From Clostridia bacterium (lineage in GTDB: Bacteria; Bacillota; Clostridia; Oscillospirales; CAG-272), in assembly GCA_017466625.1 (NCBI GenBank), contig JAFTTT010000064.1:1-54623 (forward strand): 54,623 bases of DNA, given 5' to 3'. The notes beneath the pieces were generated by a model. The model had not been told where the DNA came from. It did no database searches and was given only the letters and a program-made list of their open reading frames with translations. Below, in pieces: positions 2,773 through 49,205 of the stretch. A program made the position numbers and the translations under genes. The number at the start of each line of letters is the position of its first letter. Positions within the stretch are counted from its first letter, which is position 1.

Positions 2773-3351
2773 TTAAAGTATCTCCTTTACTTCATTGTTT
2801 TCGTTCATATTGTATTTCATTCCACAGGCGGAGCAAGTAGCATTGCCGTCCGTAAAATTCAGCTTTGAGCCGCATTGGCAAACGTAGCCCTTGATCCGTG
2901 CGGGAGATCCGTATACCATTGCGTAATCGGGCACGTCCTTCGTTACGACGCTGCCTGCTCCGACAAAGGCGTATCTGCCGATATCGTGGCCGCAGACGAT
3001 CGTCGCGTTCGCTCCTATGCTTGCGCCCTTTTTAACTGTCGTTTTGCGGTATTCATCCTTTCTTTCGATGAATGCACGCGGATTTATCACGTTAGTGAAA
3101 ACACAGCTCGGTCCGAGGAACACTCCGTCCTCACAGATGACGCCCGTATAGACCGAGACGTTATTCTGTATCTTGACGCCCTGTCCCAAAACGACTCCGG
3201 GGGAGATGACCACGTTCTGACCGATATTACATTTCGGTCCTATGACGCTTCCCTTCATTACGTGGGAGAAATGCCATATCTTGGTACCTTCGCCGATCTC
3301 GCATCCCTCGTCAACGTAGCTGGATTCGTGCACGAAGTAATTCTTATCCAT
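2773..3351 (-). CDS. Left-handed beta-helix N-acetyltransferase, WbpD/WlbB-like (UDP-2-acetamido-3-amino-2,3-dideoxy-glucuronate N-acetyltransferase candidate)
   Basis: 192-aa ORF with hexapeptide repeats. Collinear from memory with WlbB (IWHF.HV...IQNNVSVY...VFTNV.NPRA.IERK.EY...[16 protein letters not shown]). C-terminal CxC...CxxC. Confidence 0.8.
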
Positions 3352-4478
3352 TACAGTGCCTCCATGATCGCATCTATAATGATCTGCTGCTCGTCCTTAC
3401 CGAGATACGGGTGCATGGGCAGTGAGAGGGTTCTTGCACAGTAATCGTTCGATACCGTGAACTCCTCGTTATAGGTCGGCTCGTTCTCAAACACGGGAAG
3501 GCCGTGCTGAGGAGCCGGATAATAGATCATGTTGGGGATCTTCTTTTCGGTGATATGATTAACGACTCTGTCTCTCGTTTCGGTATCCTTTGCGAGTATG
3601 GCATACTGAGCGTAAACGCTGATGCAGTCCTCCTGAACGAAAGGAGTCTGGAAGTTTTCCTTCAGCGCTTCATTGTATCTCTTCGCTACCTCCTGGCGTT
3701 CGTCTATCTCGTGATCTGCCAGCGCCTTGAGCTTCGGAAGCAGGATTGCCGCCTGAAGGGTATCGAGACGGGAATTGACTCCGACTCTTACGTTATCGTA
3801 CTTTCCTCTCGGTCCCTTGCCGTGAACGCAAACGGAACGGATAAGCGCGTCAAGCTCGTCGTCGTCAACGAATATCGCTCCGCCGTCTCCGTAGCAGCCG
3901 AGCGGCTTTGCGGGGAAGAAGGACGTCGTTGCGATCTGACCGAAGGCGCCGCATCTCTTTCCCTTGTAGCTTGCGCCAAAGCTCTGAGCGGCATCCTCGA
4001 TAAGTATAAGACCGTATTTTTCGCAGATCGGGATTATTTCGTCGTAGTCGCAGGGGTTGCCGAGAATGTCGACTGCCACGACCGCCTTCGGGGTCAATTT
4101 GCCTTCGGCAAGCACCGCCTTGATCTGTCTTTCCAAGCTCTTCGGACAGAGGTTGTAGGTATCGGGCTGAACGTCACAGAACACCGAAGCGGCACCGAAC
4201 ATCTTTGAGGGCTCCGTTGAGGAGATAAAGGTAATGTCGGGACAGAAGACCGCGTCGCCTTCGCCGATGCCGTATATCATGTAGGCGATCTGAAGAGCAT
4301 CGGTGCCGTTTGCGCAGGTGATGCAATGCTTGCGTCCTACAAATTCAGCCAATTTTGCTTCAAGCTCCTTCACGTACGGTCCGCCAATGTACTGGCCTGC
4401 GTCCAAAACTGCCCTGATATTTTCGTCGATCTCATCCTTGAGCAGTTTGTACTGTGCCATCAAATCAATAAATTGCAT
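3351..4478 (-). CDS. DegT/DnrJ/EryC1/StrS-family PLP aminotransferase, WbpE-like
   Basis: Track ORF 3351..4508. Start moved to ATG 4478 ([11 protein letters not shown]...), which is preceded by GAAGGA. The longer form would overlap the upstream GT gene. Typical DegT N-terminus and length. Confidence 0.85.
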
Positions 4479-4504
4479 TTTTTGTCCTTCTTTCTTGCGC
4501 CAAC

Positions 4505-5725
4505 TCATCCCTCGATGACCGACAGCAATTTTTTTGTAAGCGCTTCAAACGAATATTCCTCGGAGACCGCCAAAGCGTTTTCGCTGTACATGCGGTACTG
4601 CTCCTCGTCCATATTCGCGAACCTCATGACCGCATCGGAAATATTTTCCGGCGTGGGTTCGGTAACCTCTACACCCGCATTTCCGATAACAGCGGGATTG
4701 TGACCGCAGGGGAAGTCGGACAGCACCGGCTTGCCTGCCGCCAGATAGTCGAAAAGCTTATTAAAGCTTATACCGTAACGGAATATGGGCGACGGGGTGT
4801 TATGGGCGATATTCAGATCCGCCCTGCTCACTATACTCGGCACAAATGATTTATTTACCCTGCCCTTGAATACGACGTTGTCGATCTTTTCATTGGCAAC
4901 TCTCTTCTTAAGCTCGGGCAGCTCGTCGCCGTCTCCCCAGATAAGGAAACGTACCCTCAGATCTTCTATTTTCTTTGCCGCGTCCAACAGCAGGCCGAGA
5001 TTATTGACCTTGCGGATAGAGCCGGTATAGACCACCTTAAAGAGCTCTTTGTTATCCAGGTCGCTATCTTCTGCCACAAAATTGTCCCGATTATATTTGA
5101 ATGCAGACAACTCCACGCCGTTATTGACGTAAAACACCTTCGATTCGGGGATCTGCTTTTCCCAGCCCTGCTCTCTTATGTACTGATAAGCGTTTTCCAT
5201 GGTAAATACCACGGCGTCGGCTTTTTTATAGATCCATTTTTCGAGGATCCTCAAGAGGATCACCGCAGGATTATTCTTGCCGGCAATACCGTAAGCAACA
5301 ATAGATTCAGGCCAAAGATCGGCAATTTCTGCTATTCCCTTGCACTTATACTTTTTTGCAAGCTTCACCCCCGCCGCACAAGACATAGGCGGCATTGACG
5401 TTGAAACGATGGCGTCGGGCTTGGGGAATTTCTTACATACGCCGGGCAGCTTCCAAGCAAACTCGCACATATTGTATATTCGCTTGAGTCCGTTATCACG
5501 GTAATCCATACACTTGATGTAAACGTAGTGCACACCGTCCACCGTCTCCTCGCGGAAGCGCTGTTTATCGGTGATCAAATTCATATCCGAATTATGAACC
5601 GTGCTGGCGGCGAAGATGGTCACGTCATGACCCAGAGCCATTAAATGCTTAGCAAAATTCGTCTGTCTGGCTAACGGATAATACTTTGGCGGAACCGCAT
5701 AATGGTTTATCAACCAAATATTCAT
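4505..5725 (-). CDS. GT4-family glycosyltransferase (WbuB-like), first gene of the operon
   Basis: 406-aa ORF. N-terminus MNIWLINHYAVPP..YPLARQTNFAKHL is typical of GT4 WbuB-type transferases. Followed by the sugar-nucleotide genes. Confidence 0.75.
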   Translation of the reverse strand: MNIWLINHYAVPPKYYPLARQTNFAKHLMALGHDVTIFAASTVHNSDMNLITDKQRFREETVDGVHYVYIKCMDYRDNGLKRIYNMCEFAWKLPGVCKKFPKPDAIVSTSMPPMSCAAGVKLAKKYKCKGIAEIADLWPESIVAYGIAGKNNPAVILLRILEKWIYKKADAVVFTMENAYQYIREQGWEKQIPESKVFYVNNGVELSAFKYNRDNFVAEDSDLDNKELFKVVYTGSIRKVNNLGLLLDAAKKIEDLRVRFLIWGDGDELPELKKRVANEKIDNVVFKGRVNKSFVPSIVSRADLNIAHNTPSPIFRYGISFNKLFDYLAAGKPVLSDFPCGHNPAVIGNAGVEVTEPTPENISDAVMRFANMDEEQYRMYSENALAVSEEYSFEALTKKLLSVIEG

Positions 5726-19112: not shown

Positions 19113-19300
19113 CGATTCCGCCGTATAAAAACAATGTTGCTATTGCATCGACACCGCTTGATGCGCAACCTACTCCTCATCCGTCAACCTGTCGGTTGAC
19201 ACCTTCCCCTCAGGGGAAGGCAAGACAACGCACCGATACTTCGCTACGTTGTTTGTAGGGGCCGAAGTCCTCGGAAGCCCGCATAAAAGCGCTGTTGCCG
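19113..19300 (+). repeat. Intergenic mosaic repeat, short form (copy 1); related to 32880-33055
   Basis: CCGCCGTATAAAAACAATGTT..., hairpins 19183-19200 and 19202-19220, then GGCAAGACAACG. About 100 nt align by hand with 32890-32980. Confidence 0.8.
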
Positions 19301-19309
19301 CATTGATAC

Positions 19310-19709
19310 AGAAATAAATATCCCCCCGCATAGCGGGGGGTATTTCAGTTTCGGGCGCAGCCCTAATATTACTGGCTGCGCACAAGTGCGCTTTAGTCCC
19401 ACCTGCCAGCCATGCATTGGATACTTGCTACCCATAAATGGGTTTCGCTCTTGGCCTCCCTTGTGTAAAGGGATGGTGCAAGTGGCATAGCCACGACCGG
19501 AGGGATTGTATATAAGCTTTTCTAACTTCTTACAACCCCTCAGTCTTCAGTAGTTTGCGCTTCGCGCAACCTACCGCAGACAGCTCCCCTTGCACAGGGG
19601 AGCCATTGGCACAAACTTCCCTTAAACTACATTTTTCTTTACATCATTTCTGTTCATCGCTTAACCTTTTTTGAACCACGCTCCTCACGCGTGGTTTTCA
19701 TTTACAAAA
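19310..19709 (-). repeat. Intergenic mosaic element, long form, copy A (candidate structured ncRNA or MITE)
   Basis: Its reverse complement matches 47632-48086. The 5' block (19599-19706) and the 3' block (19312-19444) are near-identical, the core is divergent. It ends in the hairpin CCCCCCGC-TAT-GCGGGGGG plus a T-rich run. Confidence 0.85.
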
Positions 19710-19744
19710 AAAGGCCGAAGCTTAGCTAAGCTTCGGCCTTTTTG
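19706..19744 (-). terminator. Intrinsic terminator after the 19745-20314 gene
   Basis: AGGCCGAAGCTTAGCTAAGCTTCGGCCT long perfect hairpin with flanking A/T runs, directly after the TAA at 19745-19747. Confidence 0.8.
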
Positions 19745-20314
19745 TTATTCAACTGTATAGTCGTAAAGGCGAACGATTCCCTCGCAGCCGGTGAGCCCGA
19801 TATAAAACTCCTTCGGAATATCCTCGACGCGGAGTCTGATCTTGTGACCGTCAACGTCGATATTCAGATAATACTCCTCAACGTTTACCGTAAGGGTATG
19901 AATGTCGTTTTCGCTTACGTCAAAGGTATCACCGAGGCGAAGATGCCAATGGCATCTGCCGTCCTCCTCGCGGAAGTGACGCCATACGTTGATACCGTTC
20001 TTCCAAAGAACGATCTCGAAGCAAGCTCCGTAACGGACCTCGCCGTCGGGGCAATTTTCGATCTCAGGAACGATTATTATCTCGGGACATCCGATATCCT
20101 CAAACGCGCAGCGAAGCGTTGCAGTGACACCTGCCGAGTGCTTTTCATGCGTGAGCAAGCTTATATTGTCGAAGCCCTCGCGGTGCTCCTTGTTTACGAG
20201 CGTCGTTACGTATCCGTCCTTCTGCGTGAACTTCGGATTTTCCGTAAAACGGAATGAATATGCAGTCGTCAGCTCGTTGTTCCATTCTGCGCTGCCAAAG
20301 CTTACTTTTTTCAT
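19745..20314 (-). CDS. Hypothetical cytoplasmic protein (about 190 aa), last gene of or just after the Dlt-like operon
   Basis: Start moved to ATG 20314 (MKKVSFGSAEWNNELT). No motif that I recognise. Confidence 0.5.
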   Translation of the reverse strand: MKKVSFGSAEWNNELTTAYSFRFTENPKFTQKDGYVTTLVNKEHREGFDNISLLTHEKHSAGVTATLRCAFEDIGCPEIIIVPEIENCPDGEVRYGACFEIVLWKNGINVWRHFREEDGRCHWHLRLGDTFDVSENDIHTLTVNVEEYYLNIDVDGHKIRLRVEDIPKEFYIGLTGCEGIVRLYDYTVE

Positions 20315-32809: not shown

Positions 32810-32879
32810 GACTCTGTTGCAAACGATCGGGAGCAAGCTCGGAACCCCCAAAGCTCATTTCATTCGCTTCGGGGAACCC

Positions 32880-33055
32880 CACGCGCTCCCGCCGTTAAAA
32901 AACAATGTTACATCGCACCCGAACACCTCATCCACCACCTTCGGTGGTCCCCTTCCCCTGAGGGGAAGGCAAGACAACGTATCGAAGCTTCCTTAATCCG
33001 AAAGGGAATTCCAAAGGGGAAAACGTATAAAAAACGCATTCGCGTTTTTTGTCGG
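32880..33055 (+). repeat. Intergenic mosaic repeat, short form (copy 2), ending in its own terminator-like hairpin
   Basis: CCGCCGTTAAAAAACAATGTT..., hairpins 32934-32948 and 32951-32969, GGCAAGACAACG, then AAAAAACGC-ATTC-GCGTTTTTT (about 33029-33050). Confidence 0.8.
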
Positions 33056-44600: not shown

Positions 44601-45575
44601 ATGAATCATATATCGTTTCCCGGCCTCGGGATAAAGGAATTTGCCGTTAACCCTCAAGCTTTTGAGCTTTTCGGCCGTCCCGTTATGTGGTACGGAGTCA
44701 TCATTTCCTTCGGAATGATCCTCGCCGTGCTCTACGTTCTCTACCGCGCAAAGCACAATGAAAATATCAAACAGGACGACGTTTTCGATTACGCCATCTG
44801 GGCAGTTCTCTCGGGCGTTATCGGAGCGCGCATTTACTACGTCGCGACGAAGTTCGAGGACTACAAGGCGGACACTCCTCTTGAGACCTTCAAAAACTGT
44901 ATCGCGATATGGGAGGGCGGAATCGCCATCTACGGCGCGATAATCGGAGGGCTTCTTGCCGTCATCGCCGTTTCTTACTTTAAGAAGATCAAGCTCGGCA
45001 AGGCGCTCGATATGATATCCCCTGCCGTGATGCTCGCACAGTCGATCGGACGTTGGGGCAACTTCTTCAACGCCGAGGCGCACGGCGGACCTACCACGCT
45101 CCCCTGGCGAATGGGTATCCGCAACGACGAATTCCCGAGTGCGGTTTACGTTCATCCGACCTTCCTTTACGAGTCTCTTTGGAACATCCTCGGATTTGTA
45201 CTTATAAATCTCTTTTATAAAAAGAAAAAATACGACGGGCAGATCTTCGTTATGTACCTGACCTGGTACGGCTTCGGAAGAATGCTCATTGAGGGTCTCC
45301 GTACCGACTCGCTTTACGTCGGCTCCTTCCGCATATCGCAGGTGATTGGCTTCCTCTGCTTCTTTATCGGAGCTTGCTTCCTTTCCGCTATGGAGATAGT
45401 ACGTCACCTTCGCAAAAAGGACGAGGAGACGGCCGCGCTTGAAGCAAATGACGAGGAAGAAAAAGCCGAGGAAGAAAAAGCCGAGGTCAAAGAGGAAGAA
45501 AAAGCAGAAGAAAAGAAGGACGACGGAGTTTTTGAGATCGCCGACAATTACAGTGGCGACGAGGACGATGACTGA
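44601..45575 (+). CDS. lgt: Prolipoprotein diacylglyceryl transferase with an acidic low-complexity C-terminal tail
   Basis: 324-aa ORF. Motifs GGIAIYGAIIGG, GRWGNFFNAEAHG, PTFLYESLWN. Extra Glu/Lys-rich tail of about 55 aa. Confidence 0.85.
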   Translation: MNHISFPGLGIKEFAVNPQAFELFGRPVMWYGVIISFGMILAVLYVLYRAKHNENIKQDDVFDYAIWAVLSGVIGARIYYVATKFEDYKADTPLETFKNCIAIWEGGIAIYGAIIGGLLAVIAVSYFKKIKLGKALDMISPAVMLAQSIGRWGNFFNAEAHGGPTTLPWRMGIRNDEFPSAVYVHPTFLYESLWNILGFVLINLFYKKKKYDGQIFVMYLTWYGFGRMLIEGLRTDSLYVGSFRISQVIGFLCFFIGACFLSAMEIVRHLRKKDEETAALEANDEEEKAEEEKAEVKEEEKAEEKKDDGVFEIADNYSGDEDDD

Positions 45576-46913: not shown

Positions 46914-47264
46914 ATGATCAAGGTCACATTCTTCAAAAGAGACGGCGTTTATTACGGCTTCAGAGAAACCGGTCATGCGGGATTCGACGATGCCGGTAAG
47001 GATATCGTTTGTGCGGCTGTGTCCGCTATGACGATGCTCGTCATAAATGCTATTGAGGTCTCTTACGAATCAAACGTTGAGTATTCTATCGACGAGGACA
47101 CCGCTGATATCGAGGTCAGAGTGCCGAGCGCGCTCCCCGAGAACAGCGACGACGAAACGAAGCGTTTCGCCGTATCGGGTCTTATCGGTGCGTACTTCCT
47201 TCAGCTTATCGATATGCTTGAGGATTACGACGAATATCTTGACGTAAACGAGGTCGAGGACTAA
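46914..47264 (+). CDS. prp: Ribosomal-processing cysteine protease Prp (YsxB family)
   Basis: 116-aa ORF between rplU and rpmA. Motifs GHAGF...G.DIVCAAVSA (catalytic His/Cys). Confidence 0.85.
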   Translation: MIKVTFFKRDGVYYGFRETGHAGFDDAGKDIVCAAVSAMTMLVINAIEVSYESNVEYSIDEDTADIEVRVPSALPENSDDETKRFAVSGLIGAYFLQLIDMLEDYDEYLDVNEVED

Positions 47265-47311
47265 CGGTGCCTCGGCGCAACACATTTAACGATTAACGGA
47301 GGTAAGAAACG

Positions 47312-47590
47312 ATGTTGAAGCTTAATCTTCAATTCTTTGCTCATAAGAAGGGCGTTGGTTCCACTAAGAACGGCCGTGACTCTGAGTCCAAGCGTCTTGG
47401 TGCGAAGAAGGCAGACGGCCAGAGCGTAATCGCCGGCAATATCATTGTCAGACAGCGCGGAACTCACATCCACCCCGGTAAGAACGTAGGTCGCGGTAAG
47501 GACGATACCCTTTTCGCACTCACGAACGGTGTGGTCCGTTTCGAGCATATGACTCGTGATAAGAAGCGCGTCAGCGTTTACGAGGACTGA
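47312..47590 (+). CDS. rpmA: 50S ribosomal protein L27 with N-terminal propeptide
   Basis: 92-aa [12 protein letters not shown]|[15 protein letters not shown]: the Firmicute-type extension removed by Prp. Confidence 0.9.
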
Positions 47591-47600
47591 TTCACCAAAT

Positions 47601-47629
47601 AAAAAGAACGCCGAACGGCGTTCTTTTTT
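47601..47629 (+). terminator. Intrinsic terminator after rpmA
   Basis: AAAAAGAACGCC-GAA-CGGCGTTCTTTTTT. Confidence 0.85.
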
Positions 47630-47631
47630 AT

Positions 47632-48086
47632 TTGTGAATGAAAACCACGCGTGAGGAGCGTGGTTCAAAAAAAGGTTAACCGATGAACAGAAATGATGTA
47701 AAGAAAAAATGTAGTTTAAGGGTAGTTTGTGCCAATGGCTCCAACTCCGGAGTAGTTTGCTGCGCAACCTACGGGAGCTGTCACCGAAGGTGACTGAAGG
47801 AGCCATCGGGCGAGAAACGTCCGATAGAAGATATTTACAGAACCGCCCTAATGAGAAGGGCAACGCTCTATAATTCCTTTCATCGCGTGCTCCTTCCGTC
47901 TTTTTGCTTCGCAAAAATCCACCTCCCTCCCGGAGGGAGGCAATGAAACGTCCCTGAACCCATTTATGGGTAGCAAGTATCAAATGCATGGCTGGCAGGT
48001 GGGACTAAAGCGCACTTGTGCGCAGCCAGTAGTATTAGGGCTACGCCCGAAAATGAAATACCCCCCGCTATGCGGGGGGATATTTG
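47632..48086 (+). repeat. Intergenic mosaic element, long form, copy B (candidate structured ncRNA or MITE)
   Basis: Matches the reverse complement of 19310-19709 at its 5' block (47634-47742) and 3' block (47957-48084). 214-nt hairpin-rich core. Ends in CCCCCCGC-TAT-GCGGGGGG plus ATATTTGTTTTT. Confidence 0.85.
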
Positions 48087-48092
48087 TTTTTA

Positions 48093-49205
48093 TCAGTTCG
48101 TTGCGTCGGGAGCGCTCGTATCGGGTGCGGGAGTTTCAAGCGGTGCGCGGGTACCGGTCTCAAGTGTGACCGTTACGATAAATCCGTTCATATTATCACC
48201 GCTTACCGTATAGGGACGGTTTTCCGGCACGGGAAGTCGAAGCGTTCCTTCCTCAGGTGCTTCAACGTAGTATACCTGATAGGTATTTCCGTCCTTGCTT
48301 TCAAGAGTGTAGCTGTTCGTCACGCCGTTGTGGTCCGCGGCAAGCTTCGAAAGATACTCTTCAAGGCAAAGCTCATTCTGATACATATACTCCGCGTGGG
48401 GCATTCCCACGTAACGGAGTTGCCACGGCTCTGCATAGCCGACGATATTTTTCTTGTCGCTCGGTGCGCGGAAGATGAAGCCGTACTCGTGTGCATGCTC
48501 CTTTATCCACTTCGGCTCACTTGCGGTCGTGATATTTACCGTCTTTCCCGTTTCGGAATTATAGCCGTTGAAACGGAAGGTCGCACCGCTGTGCCAGTCG
48601 CTCGCGCCTGCGGGAGTATCTGTCTGTCCCTTATCAAAGAGGTTCTTCTGCGAATCAAAATCGTAATACGCCTTATTGATGTTCAGATACTTATATTTGG
48701 TCACGATATAGAAATCGTCCATCATTTCGTTGAGCGCAACTACCGCGTCGTACTTCAGCATGTGGGTCGATTTCGATATCTGATATGACTTCGTGCTCGG
48801 GCGGTTCTCATAAAGAGAGGCAAGGAGATCGTCTTCCTTGAAGCCGTAAAGATGCTCTTCATTTATAAGCTGGAGAAGTCCGAGCTTGAGCCCCTCTCTA
48901 TCCTTATTTATAAAGGTCATCTTAAGGGTGTCGTCGGATTCCGAAGTATCGGGCGTATCATCTCCCTTTCCGTCCGTCGTTGTGCTGCCGTCGGTAGTCA
49001 CCGCCGGGGGGTCGATCTTCGGCTTATCGCCGCCCTTTTTGTCGGCGAAAAGTCCCGTTCCCGTTACCGACATAATGAATATCACGACAAACGCGATTAT
49101 CACCGCCGTCATTACAAGCACGAGTGCCGTGCGGACCGGATTTGGCTTATTCTGATTCTTGTAGCTTCTGATCGGAGCGGATCCGAAGTCATTACCGTTA
49201 TTCAT
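48093..49205 (-). CDS. Membrane-anchored M15-family (VanY-like) D-alanyl-D-alanine carboxypeptidase
   Basis: 370-aa ORF. N-terminal TM helix and a Thr/Asp-rich linker. Motifs SDWHSG and EPWQLRYVG.PHA typical of peptidase M15B. Confidence 0.7.
   Translation of the reverse strand: MNNGNDFGSAPIRSYKNQNKPNPVRTALVLVMTAVIIAFVVIFIMSVTGTGLFADKKGGDKPKIDPPAVTTDGSTTTDGKGDDTPDTSESDDTLKMTFINKDREGLKLGLLQLINEEHLYGFKEDDLLASLYENRPSTKSYQISKSTHMLKYDAVVALNEMMDDFYIVTKYKYLNINKAYYDFDSQKNLFDKGQTDTPAGASDWHSGATFRFNGYNSETGKTVNITTASEPKWIKEHAHEYGFIFRAPSDKKNIVGYAEPWQLRYVGMPHAEYMYQNELCLEEYLSKLAADHNGVTNSYTLESKDGNTYQVYYVEAPEEGTLRLPVPENRPYTVSGDNMNGFIVTVTLETGTRAPLETPAPDTSAPDATN

Follow-up and report, generated by a model that had tools for sequence, protein, structure and literature searches.

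Two inverted noncoding elements in a Clostridia contig are probably transposase-less derivatives of an IS200-type insertion sequence

What is the noncoding sequence of about 0.4 kb that occurs twice, in opposite orientations, behind genes of the Clostridia bacterium contig JAFTTT010000064.1? We analyzed the whole 54,623-nt stretch of this contig (the window), for which a preliminary description made from the letters alone had preferred a large structured noncoding RNA (ncRNA) family and had named a terminator-targeting, non-autonomous mobile element as the main alternative. The evidence matches that alternative. We consider it highly probable (roughly 0.9) that both copies, W1 (window 47636-48088, plus strand) and W2 (window 19703-19313, minus strand), are transposase-less, non-autonomous elements of the IS200 group (IS200/IS605 family), similar to palindrome-associated transposable elements (PATEs). 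On this reading, two stretches of an uncultured gut Clostridium that look like a novel structured RNA gene belong instead to common mobile DNA. This assignment is made because autonomous copies with the same ends encode a Y1 transposase, not because of the hallmarks of classical miniature inverted-repeat transposable elements (MITEs).

The two copies were compared with each other by a repeat search, BLAST, and multiple alignment. The reverse complement of 47632-48086 had been reported to recur at 19310-19709, with roughly five differences in each of two conserved blocks, and the repeat search of the window bore this out: the 3' block was recovered as a pair of inverted arms (19312-19444 and 47957-48089; 133 nt, 96%), and the 5' block as three abutting inverted arms spanning 47627-47742 and 19599-19712 (96-98%). 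In BLAST, the 5' blocks of W1 and W2 were 95.5% identical over 111 nt and the 3' blocks 96.2% identical over 133 nt. The middles (~214 nt in W1 and ~154 nt in W2) could not be aligned base by base, as had been stated. At the refined ends, TTGT directly precedes each element. Both copies lie directly 3' of the terminator of an upstream gene and in the orientation of that gene, as first noticed, and each is placed between convergent genes: rpmA and a VanY/M15 peptidase gene (stop at 48093) in the case of W1, and a 189-aa minus-strand gene (19745-20314) and a TspO gene in the case of W2.

The same ends surround a transposase gene at loci on other contigs (given L-numbers). In L018, from the metagenome-assembled genome (MAG) RGIG8739, a 709-nt copy (2231-2939) matches the window element over its first ~52 nt (through GGTTAACCGATGAA) and its last 133 nt. 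The middle of this copy encodes an IS200-type Y1/HUH transposase (MKKVS...HIHMLV...GYYVDTVG...PFMGGK), which matches Pfam Y1_Tnp (PF01797; E = 8.3e-41), NCBIfam transpos_IS200 (NF033573; 1.6e-44), and PDB structures of ISHp608 and related Y1 TnpA proteins. Its tnpA gene (2360-2830) carries one in-frame TGA at Arg46 (CGA to TGA). An intact protein 99% identical to the L018 transposase exists (P0002), and intact 156-aa TnpA homologues at 85-92% identity form clusters, the largest with thousands of members; almost all of the sequences come from ENA metagenome assemblies, for the most part from contigs of ~0.7 kb. Gut metagenomes are rich in intact copies that have these ends. At eleven homologue loci (L031-L041), the same left (LE) and right (RE) ends flank an intact tnpA. 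There, TTGT is followed at the junction by an LE of the pattern ATAACGAAAACCACGCGATAGTCGCGTGGTT...GGTTAACCGATGAA, the RE follows the pattern ...GGCTGGCAGG...GGGCTATGCCC...CCACCCGCTATGCGGGTGGATATTTATT up to its tip, and the 3' block starts inside the last six tnpA codons. Judged by this homology, the 5' block of W1 and W2 is the LE of the insertion sequence (IS), and the 3' block its RE including the last tnpA codons; tnpA itself has been replaced by a short family-specific segment and an unrelated palindromic intergenic repeat. W1 and W2 have lost tnpA: tblastn found no match to TnpA in the elements or anywhere in the 54-kb window.

TnpA is 67-68% identical to that of Yersinia pestis IS1541, and both IS1541 (on pMT1) and an IS on a Subdoligranulum plasmid share the plan of the Clostridial copies, namely TTGT immediately ahead of the LE, a G+C hairpin located ~10 nt inside it, a further hairpin across the final tnpA codons, and an RE composed of a G+C hairpin and then ATATTTATT. 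All of these elements (the IS copies of Clostridia, Yersinia IS1541, and the Subdoligranulum IS) carry an identical RE tail, GGATATTTATT. A separate observation concerns the flanks of the autonomous copies: L037 and L039 have the same left flank and different right flanks, and L032 has the right flank of L037, a pattern suggestive of recombination among the IS copies or of a chimeric assembly at this repeat.

Many of these features would also be expected of a family of ncRNA genes ~0.4 kb long in which the 5' and 3' domains are conserved, the core varies, and each gene has its own terminator. Both whole copies fold far better than dinucleotide-shuffled sequences (z = -4.7 and -7.0), and each has at its 3' end the 8-bp all-G/C hairpin and T run that had been described as an intrinsic terminator, which the terminator scan scored on both strands. 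The fold drawn earlier for the 3' block was largely recovered by RNAalifold, namely its ACCCA/TGGGT and GGGC/GCCC helices and its terminal hairpin; the GCTGGC/GCCAG helix was given a slightly different inner pairing. In the alignment, compensatory changes across copies fall at five base pairs of the 3' block, and the LE stem varies in sequence among copies and keeps its self-complementarity. Moreover, the left end of Salmonella IS200 yields regulatory RNAs, art200 and a small RNA derived from the 5' untranslated region (UTR) (PMC4513863, PMC5435999). Covariation is, however, no argument for an RNA here, because Y1 transposases need these hairpins in single-stranded DNA. The conserved blocks coincide with IS200-type ends, some tnpA coding sequence lies within the 3' block, cores can be exchanged and are found alone elsewhere, and close strains lack the element. 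No sense-strand promoter was found in either copy by a promoter scan. The preliminary description had recognized no known RNA family, and the Rfam search that it proposed likewise yielded none: Rfam 15 gave no match at the gathering score over the whole window, and at E up to 10 over both copies it gave only terminator-like noise. We regard an ncRNA family, the reading preferred at first, as very improbable.

A related idea is that the element is a PATE carrying a guide RNA (omega RNA or reRNA) for a TnpB or IscB encoded elsewhere. Omega RNAs are often encoded by PATEs (PMC10055086), and ~110 nt of conserved structured sequence occupy the right end, where TnpB guide scaffolds lie. The same RE, however, belongs to tnpA-only IS200 elements of ~0.7 kb without tnpB or iscB, and Rfam matched neither the IscB-associated HEARO RNA nor any other family. 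In addition, a transcript would end before reading a guide in the flank, because a strong terminator hairpin lies ahead of the element's final 9 nt. This makes a guide RNA extremely improbable.

Coding potential offered no further candidate. As had been stated, the element contains no credible open reading frame (ORF), and none is conserved between W1 and W2. A 242-aa antisense ORF (47261-47989) and two short ORFs starting in the 5' block have no intact equivalent in the other copy, being either disrupted by single-base indels or missing there; in the short ORFs, the differences lie in A runs. The possibility that the 5' block encodes a peptide (MKTTREERGSKKG or a 36-aa Cys-rich ORF) was rejected because these one-base A-run differences shift the frame between copies.

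The preliminary description had suggested that terminal inverted repeats and target duplications be looked for, as signs of a MITE. Neither a terminal inverted repeat nor a flanking direct repeat is present at the termini of W1 or W2. This test is unsuited to the present case because elements of the IS200/IS605 family have neither (PMC5027513, PMC5934647); as exemplified by IS608, they insert 3' of a fixed short target sequence (PMC5934647). PATEs are a described class of such elements (PMC10055086, PMC7290912).

A route of mobilization can be proposed by analogy with IS608 and ISDra2 (PMC5934647, PMC5027513, PMC2806898). A TnpA dimer supplied in trans from elsewhere in the genome would bind the top-strand hairpins of the LE and the RE and cleave after the flanking TTGT and after the RE tip, so that the top strand would leave as a single-stranded circle. 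Insertion of the circle would follow 3' of a TTGT on a single-stranded target, as a rule the lagging-strand template ('peel and paste'), and would yield no inverted repeats or target duplication; the preferred target would be the place where an intrinsic terminator's T tract ends. Cleavage in IS608 is directed by the tetranucleotide 5' of each hairpin, which pairs with the cleavage site (PMC5934647). Here, AAAA (LE) and AATA (RE) occupy the corresponding positions; with TTGT and TTAT(T) as candidate cleavage sites, this combination would fit pairing of the IS608 type.

The predicted anatomy of both copies is given in Table 1. A weak promoter-like sequence, TTGGCA-16-TACATT, lies antisense in both and faces the LE hairpin (47735-47708, minus strand; 19606-19633, plus strand), in a geometry reminiscent of the antisense small RNA art200 of Salmonella IS200 (PMC4513863). 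The aligned L016 and L026 have not retained the -10 hexamer of this sequence, and we give it little weight. The RE hairpin of W1, which resembles a bidirectional terminator, is situated 5-13 nt beyond the VanY/M15 stop and scores as a terminator on the minus strand; it probably serves the VanY/M15 gene as terminator.

Table 1. Predicted features of W1 and W2 and of the terminators that flank them (window positions; LE, left end; RE, right end)
Feature	Position	Strand	Basis or remark
W1 flanking rpmA intrinsic terminator	47601-47628	+	Terminator scan; flanking DNA, outside the element
W1 TTGT	47632-47635	+	Inferred target/left cleavage site; stays in the flank
W1 LE	47636-47687	+	Alignment with L018 and L031-L041
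W1 LE subterminal hairpin, AACCACGC-N7-GCGTGGTT	47643-47665	+	Folding
W1 segment seen only in transposase-less copies	47688-47734	+	In place of the tnpA 5' UTR of the full IS; common to W1 and W2
W1 core, nested quasi-palindromic intergenic repeat (ATGGCTCC ... GGAGGGAGGC)	47735-47941	+	Not tnpA-derived
W1 linker	47942-47956	+	
W1 RE	47957-48088	+	Alignment with IS copies; internal hairpins included
W1 remnant of last tnpA codons, PFMGSK	47960-47980	+	Stop TAA changed to TAT
W1 RE terminal hairpin, CCCCCCGC-TAT-GCGGGGGG	48061-48079	+	
W1 RE tail, ATATTTGTT	48080-48088	+	
W2 flanking terminator, upstream gene 19745-20314	19743-19708	-	Hairpin with A and T runs; flanking DNA
W2 TTGT	19707-19704	-	
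W2 LE	19703-19653	-	
W2 LE hairpin	19696-19674	-	
W2 segment seen only in transposase-less copies	19652-19607	-	
W2 core, shorter, palindromic	19606-19454	-	
W2 linker	19453-19445	-	
W2 RE	19444-19313	-	
W2 RE terminal hairpin	19340-19322	-	
W2 RE tail, ATATTTATT	19321-19313	-	

The core has a history of its own. It shows no similarity to tnpA by tblastn or blastn, and a decayed tnpA was rejected as its source for lack of similarity at the protein or DNA level. At least 12 transposase-less copies have the same W1-type core, which also stands alone, without IS ends, at L025 3211-3402; the W2-type core also occurs in L012 and L021 (inverted there) and stands alone at L028 2672-2800. Both types consist of G+C hairpins over 125-200 nt and match themselves on both strands, which makes them large imperfect palindromes. 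Because there is no tnpA similarity, stand-alone copies exist, and the core types are exchangeable, the core is a second intergenic repeat in its own right, independent of the IS200 derivative in which it is nested or by which it is carried. Its acquisition could reflect either insertion into an IS that had undergone deletion or recombination involving stand-alone copies. A hammerhead-like CUGAUGAG, noticed by eye in the core of L026 and L025, was discarded as a ribozyme candidate, since it sits in a hairpin loop and has no Rfam ribozyme match.

Another intergenic repeat of hairpin modules (ACCTCATCC-hairpin-CCTTCCCCTCAGGGGAAGGCAAGACAACG; GTAGGGG-hairpin) was observed in the window at 19113-19311, where it fills the space between W2 and the TspO stop, and at 32821-33010. 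Members of this family are also present at L003 4620-4930, L008 1060-1212, L009 855-919, L017 2300-2439, L020 3587-3713, L022 6828-6917, and L026 1216-1389, and the 3' half of the W1-type core resembles them. Rfam searches with the stand-alone core and with this family returned only terminator-like noise.

We then examined how widely the element is distributed. A genome scan, with an alignment of two pseudo-translations of the 3' block as the query, detected 19 loci, most of them in a single MAG, Clostridia bacterium RGIG8739 (water deer colon); three were in the Eubacteriales MAG SGB_2529, and one divergent locus was in a roe deer MAG. BLAST of both blocks revealed ~19 right ends in RGIG8739 and more than ten full-length copies of 430-460 nt. 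Many copies are located close to a contig end (no more than a few hundred bases away), as is characteristic of a dispersed repeat that disrupts MAG assemblies. Viral contigs gave no match in two exact-pattern scans, and a degenerate-pattern scan of Joint Genome Institute (JGI) metagenomes yielded one match only, a chance hit within a coding region, indicating that the family is rare there or that the pattern was too strict. Elsewhere, L029 3925-4131 is a divergent relative (76% identity in the RE) that has the right end only, directly after a terminator and TTTGT; it is a solo-RE derivative, whose left ~70 nt contain no recognizable LE hairpin.

This distribution bears on the possibility that W1 and W2 are immobile fossils, in which tnpA was lost by in-place internal deletion and which were never mobilized, as a result of two decay events or a segmental duplication. 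Their ends differ by 4-5% and their cores differ, the RE tail of W1 is off the consensus (TTTGTT vs TTTATT), and no tnpA is present within 54 kb, all of which would suit fossils. However, the transposase-less form has spread: at least 12 transposase-less copies with the W1-type core and the same 47-nt replacement segment lie at different genomic flanks, and the recurrence of one architecture at so many flanks requires spread after tnpA loss. Furthermore, the LE and RE hairpins and the tails are intact in both W1 and W2. We consider the fossil explanation improbable.

Strains were compared at rpmA by means of contigs that encode a 100% identical L27. The element behind rpmA is almost unchanged in L004-L006. 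In L001-L003 and L007-L010, the rpmA terminator has no element behind it, and similarity stops 1-5 nt past the terminator. L007 has only two back-to-back bare terminators (784-850), with an unoccupied TTTGT; L008-L010 carry other small repeats in the rpmA-VanY spacer, and L001-L003 contain three extra genes at 3280-4620 (a 143-aa ORF and two helix-turn-helix genes). The rpmA-VanY spacer (window 47629-48092) is thus hypervariable among strains with identical L27, and the absence of the element from some of them means that it is dispensable and polymorphic at this site. No empty site was found for W2: all contigs with an identical upstream protein have the same 632-nt spacer and, for that reason, represent the same strain.

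Several observations weigh against an assignment of W1 and W2 to mobilizable IS200 derivatives. The L018 copy, with its interrupted reading frame, is the sole tnpA-bearing copy recovered from RGIG8739, and the DNA retrieved from this MAG contains no demonstrably intact transposase, against ~19 right ends. Homology between the IS and the transposase-less copies ends ~52 nt into the 5' block, the next ~47 nt being unmatched to the IS, and a cognate tnpA with the LE variant of the window (loop TGAGGA) was not recovered. Among the strains compared at rpmA, an exact empty site, with the flanks joined at TTGT, was not found, and the rpmA-VanY spacers differ by more than the element alone. W1 and W2 face opposite ways, and GC skew is negative across most of the window, shows no switch between the two, and reaches about zero only after ~44 kb; at most one of the two copies fits the lagging-strand-template rule, unless the change in skew near 44-48 kb marks a replication switch. 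Finally, the transposase-less copies may have an additional role as RNA.

We next focused on the sites of insertion, using 24 independent left flanks (21 Clostridial, from transposase-less and autonomous copies, two of IS1541, and one of the Subdoligranulum IS). A strong hairpin with a T run directly precedes the junction in all 24. Over 45 nt, the left flanks fold at -14 to -26 kcal/mol, as compared with a mean of -4.6 kcal/mol for the right flanks. The last four bases of the left flank are [T/A]TGT at 22 of the 24 sites, the exceptions being TTAG and TTGC. The G+C stem ends 8-13 T-rich nt before the junction, a distance counted by hand; the automatic hairpin-junction measure is confounded by pairing of A tracts with T tracts. 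In the RE of the element itself, the G+C stem ends 9 nt before the tip (ATATTTATT). The target resembles the right end, in that a G+C hairpin, 8-13 nt, and TTGT parallel the RE hairpin and its 9 nt, and we infer that TnpA reads the terminator as an RE-like structure. Alternatively, TTGT may simply be common where T tracts end, or selection may let only insertions behind terminators survive.

In Yersinia, IS1541 is found between pheL and pheA, that is, behind an attenuator terminator (PMC3082878). No stated terminator preference of IS200 or IS1541 was found in the literature, with older IS200/IS1541 papers and ISfinder beyond reach, so that the rule may already be known. Speculatively, the IS200 clade comprising the Clostridial elements, IS1541, and the Subdoligranulum IS might home to intrinsic terminators in a structure-guided manner, by RE mimicry that goes beyond 4-nt pairing, and its transposase-less copies might carry a second palindromic repeat and deposit bidirectional terminators between convergent genes; we hold this extended scheme to be rather unlikely as a whole.

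W1 and W2 share with the IS200 group (Salmonella IS200 and Yersinia IS1541) the junction of TTGT with the LE, the hairpin over the last tnpA codons, the RE tail GGATATTTATT, and the position after a terminator hairpin. The LE hairpin begins ~8-11 nt from the end; in the 707-bp Salmonella IS200, a bidirectional terminator hairpin occupies LE nt 12-34, and a stem in the 5' UTR sequesters the Shine-Dalgarno (SD) sequence (PMC4513863). By contrast, W1 and W2 lack tnpA, the SD-sequestering 5' UTR stem, and the tnpA promoter, and ~255 nt (W1) or 200 nt (W2) of unrelated sequence replace the tnpA region. As in PATEs, the LE and RE hairpins are kept, there is no protein gene, copies are multiple, and mobilization in trans is presumed (PMC10055086, PMC7290912). 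The PATEs in those reports derive from IS605-type or tnpB-bearing elements, often with omega RNA, whereas the window element would derive from a tnpA-only IS200-type element with a palindromic repeat as passenger. Classical MITEs are likewise short, noncoding, multi-copy, intergenic, and dependent on a transposase in trans, but W1 and W2 have no terminal inverted repeats or target duplication, and their proposed movement would use single-strand HUH/Y1 chemistry.

The core by itself is similar to REP/BIME, REPIN, and ERIC repeats, being an imperfect palindrome of G+C hairpins that can stand alone in intergenic DNA; the resemblance is one of form only. Intrinsic terminators are homing sites of class C group II introns as well. 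Like these introns, W1 and W2 are inserted directly after terminator hairpins, in the orientation of the upstream gene; unlike them, they have no intron domains by Rfam and do have IS200 ends, and the two are unrelated.

The significance of these findings is mainly corrective, since the candidate large structured ncRNA corresponds to transposon ends. IS200-type ends imitate ncRNA genes because they are hairpin-rich, covarying, terminator-ended, and located behind genes, and they will keep turning up as false positives when gut Clostridia are scanned for new RNAs. The family can also replace or supply terminators at convergent gene junctions. Two curiosities are left over, the strict terminator-adjacent insertion common to these elements and IS1541, and the uncharacterized palindromic repeats of these genomes.

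Apart from these elements, the window contains a tandem 15-nt repeat (GAGGAAGAAAAAGCC, ~4 copies) at 45438-45523, in the 3' part of an ORF at 44601-45575. The repeat encodes an E/K-rich tail, and the ORF matches by position a gene in L001 called LGT (PF01790).

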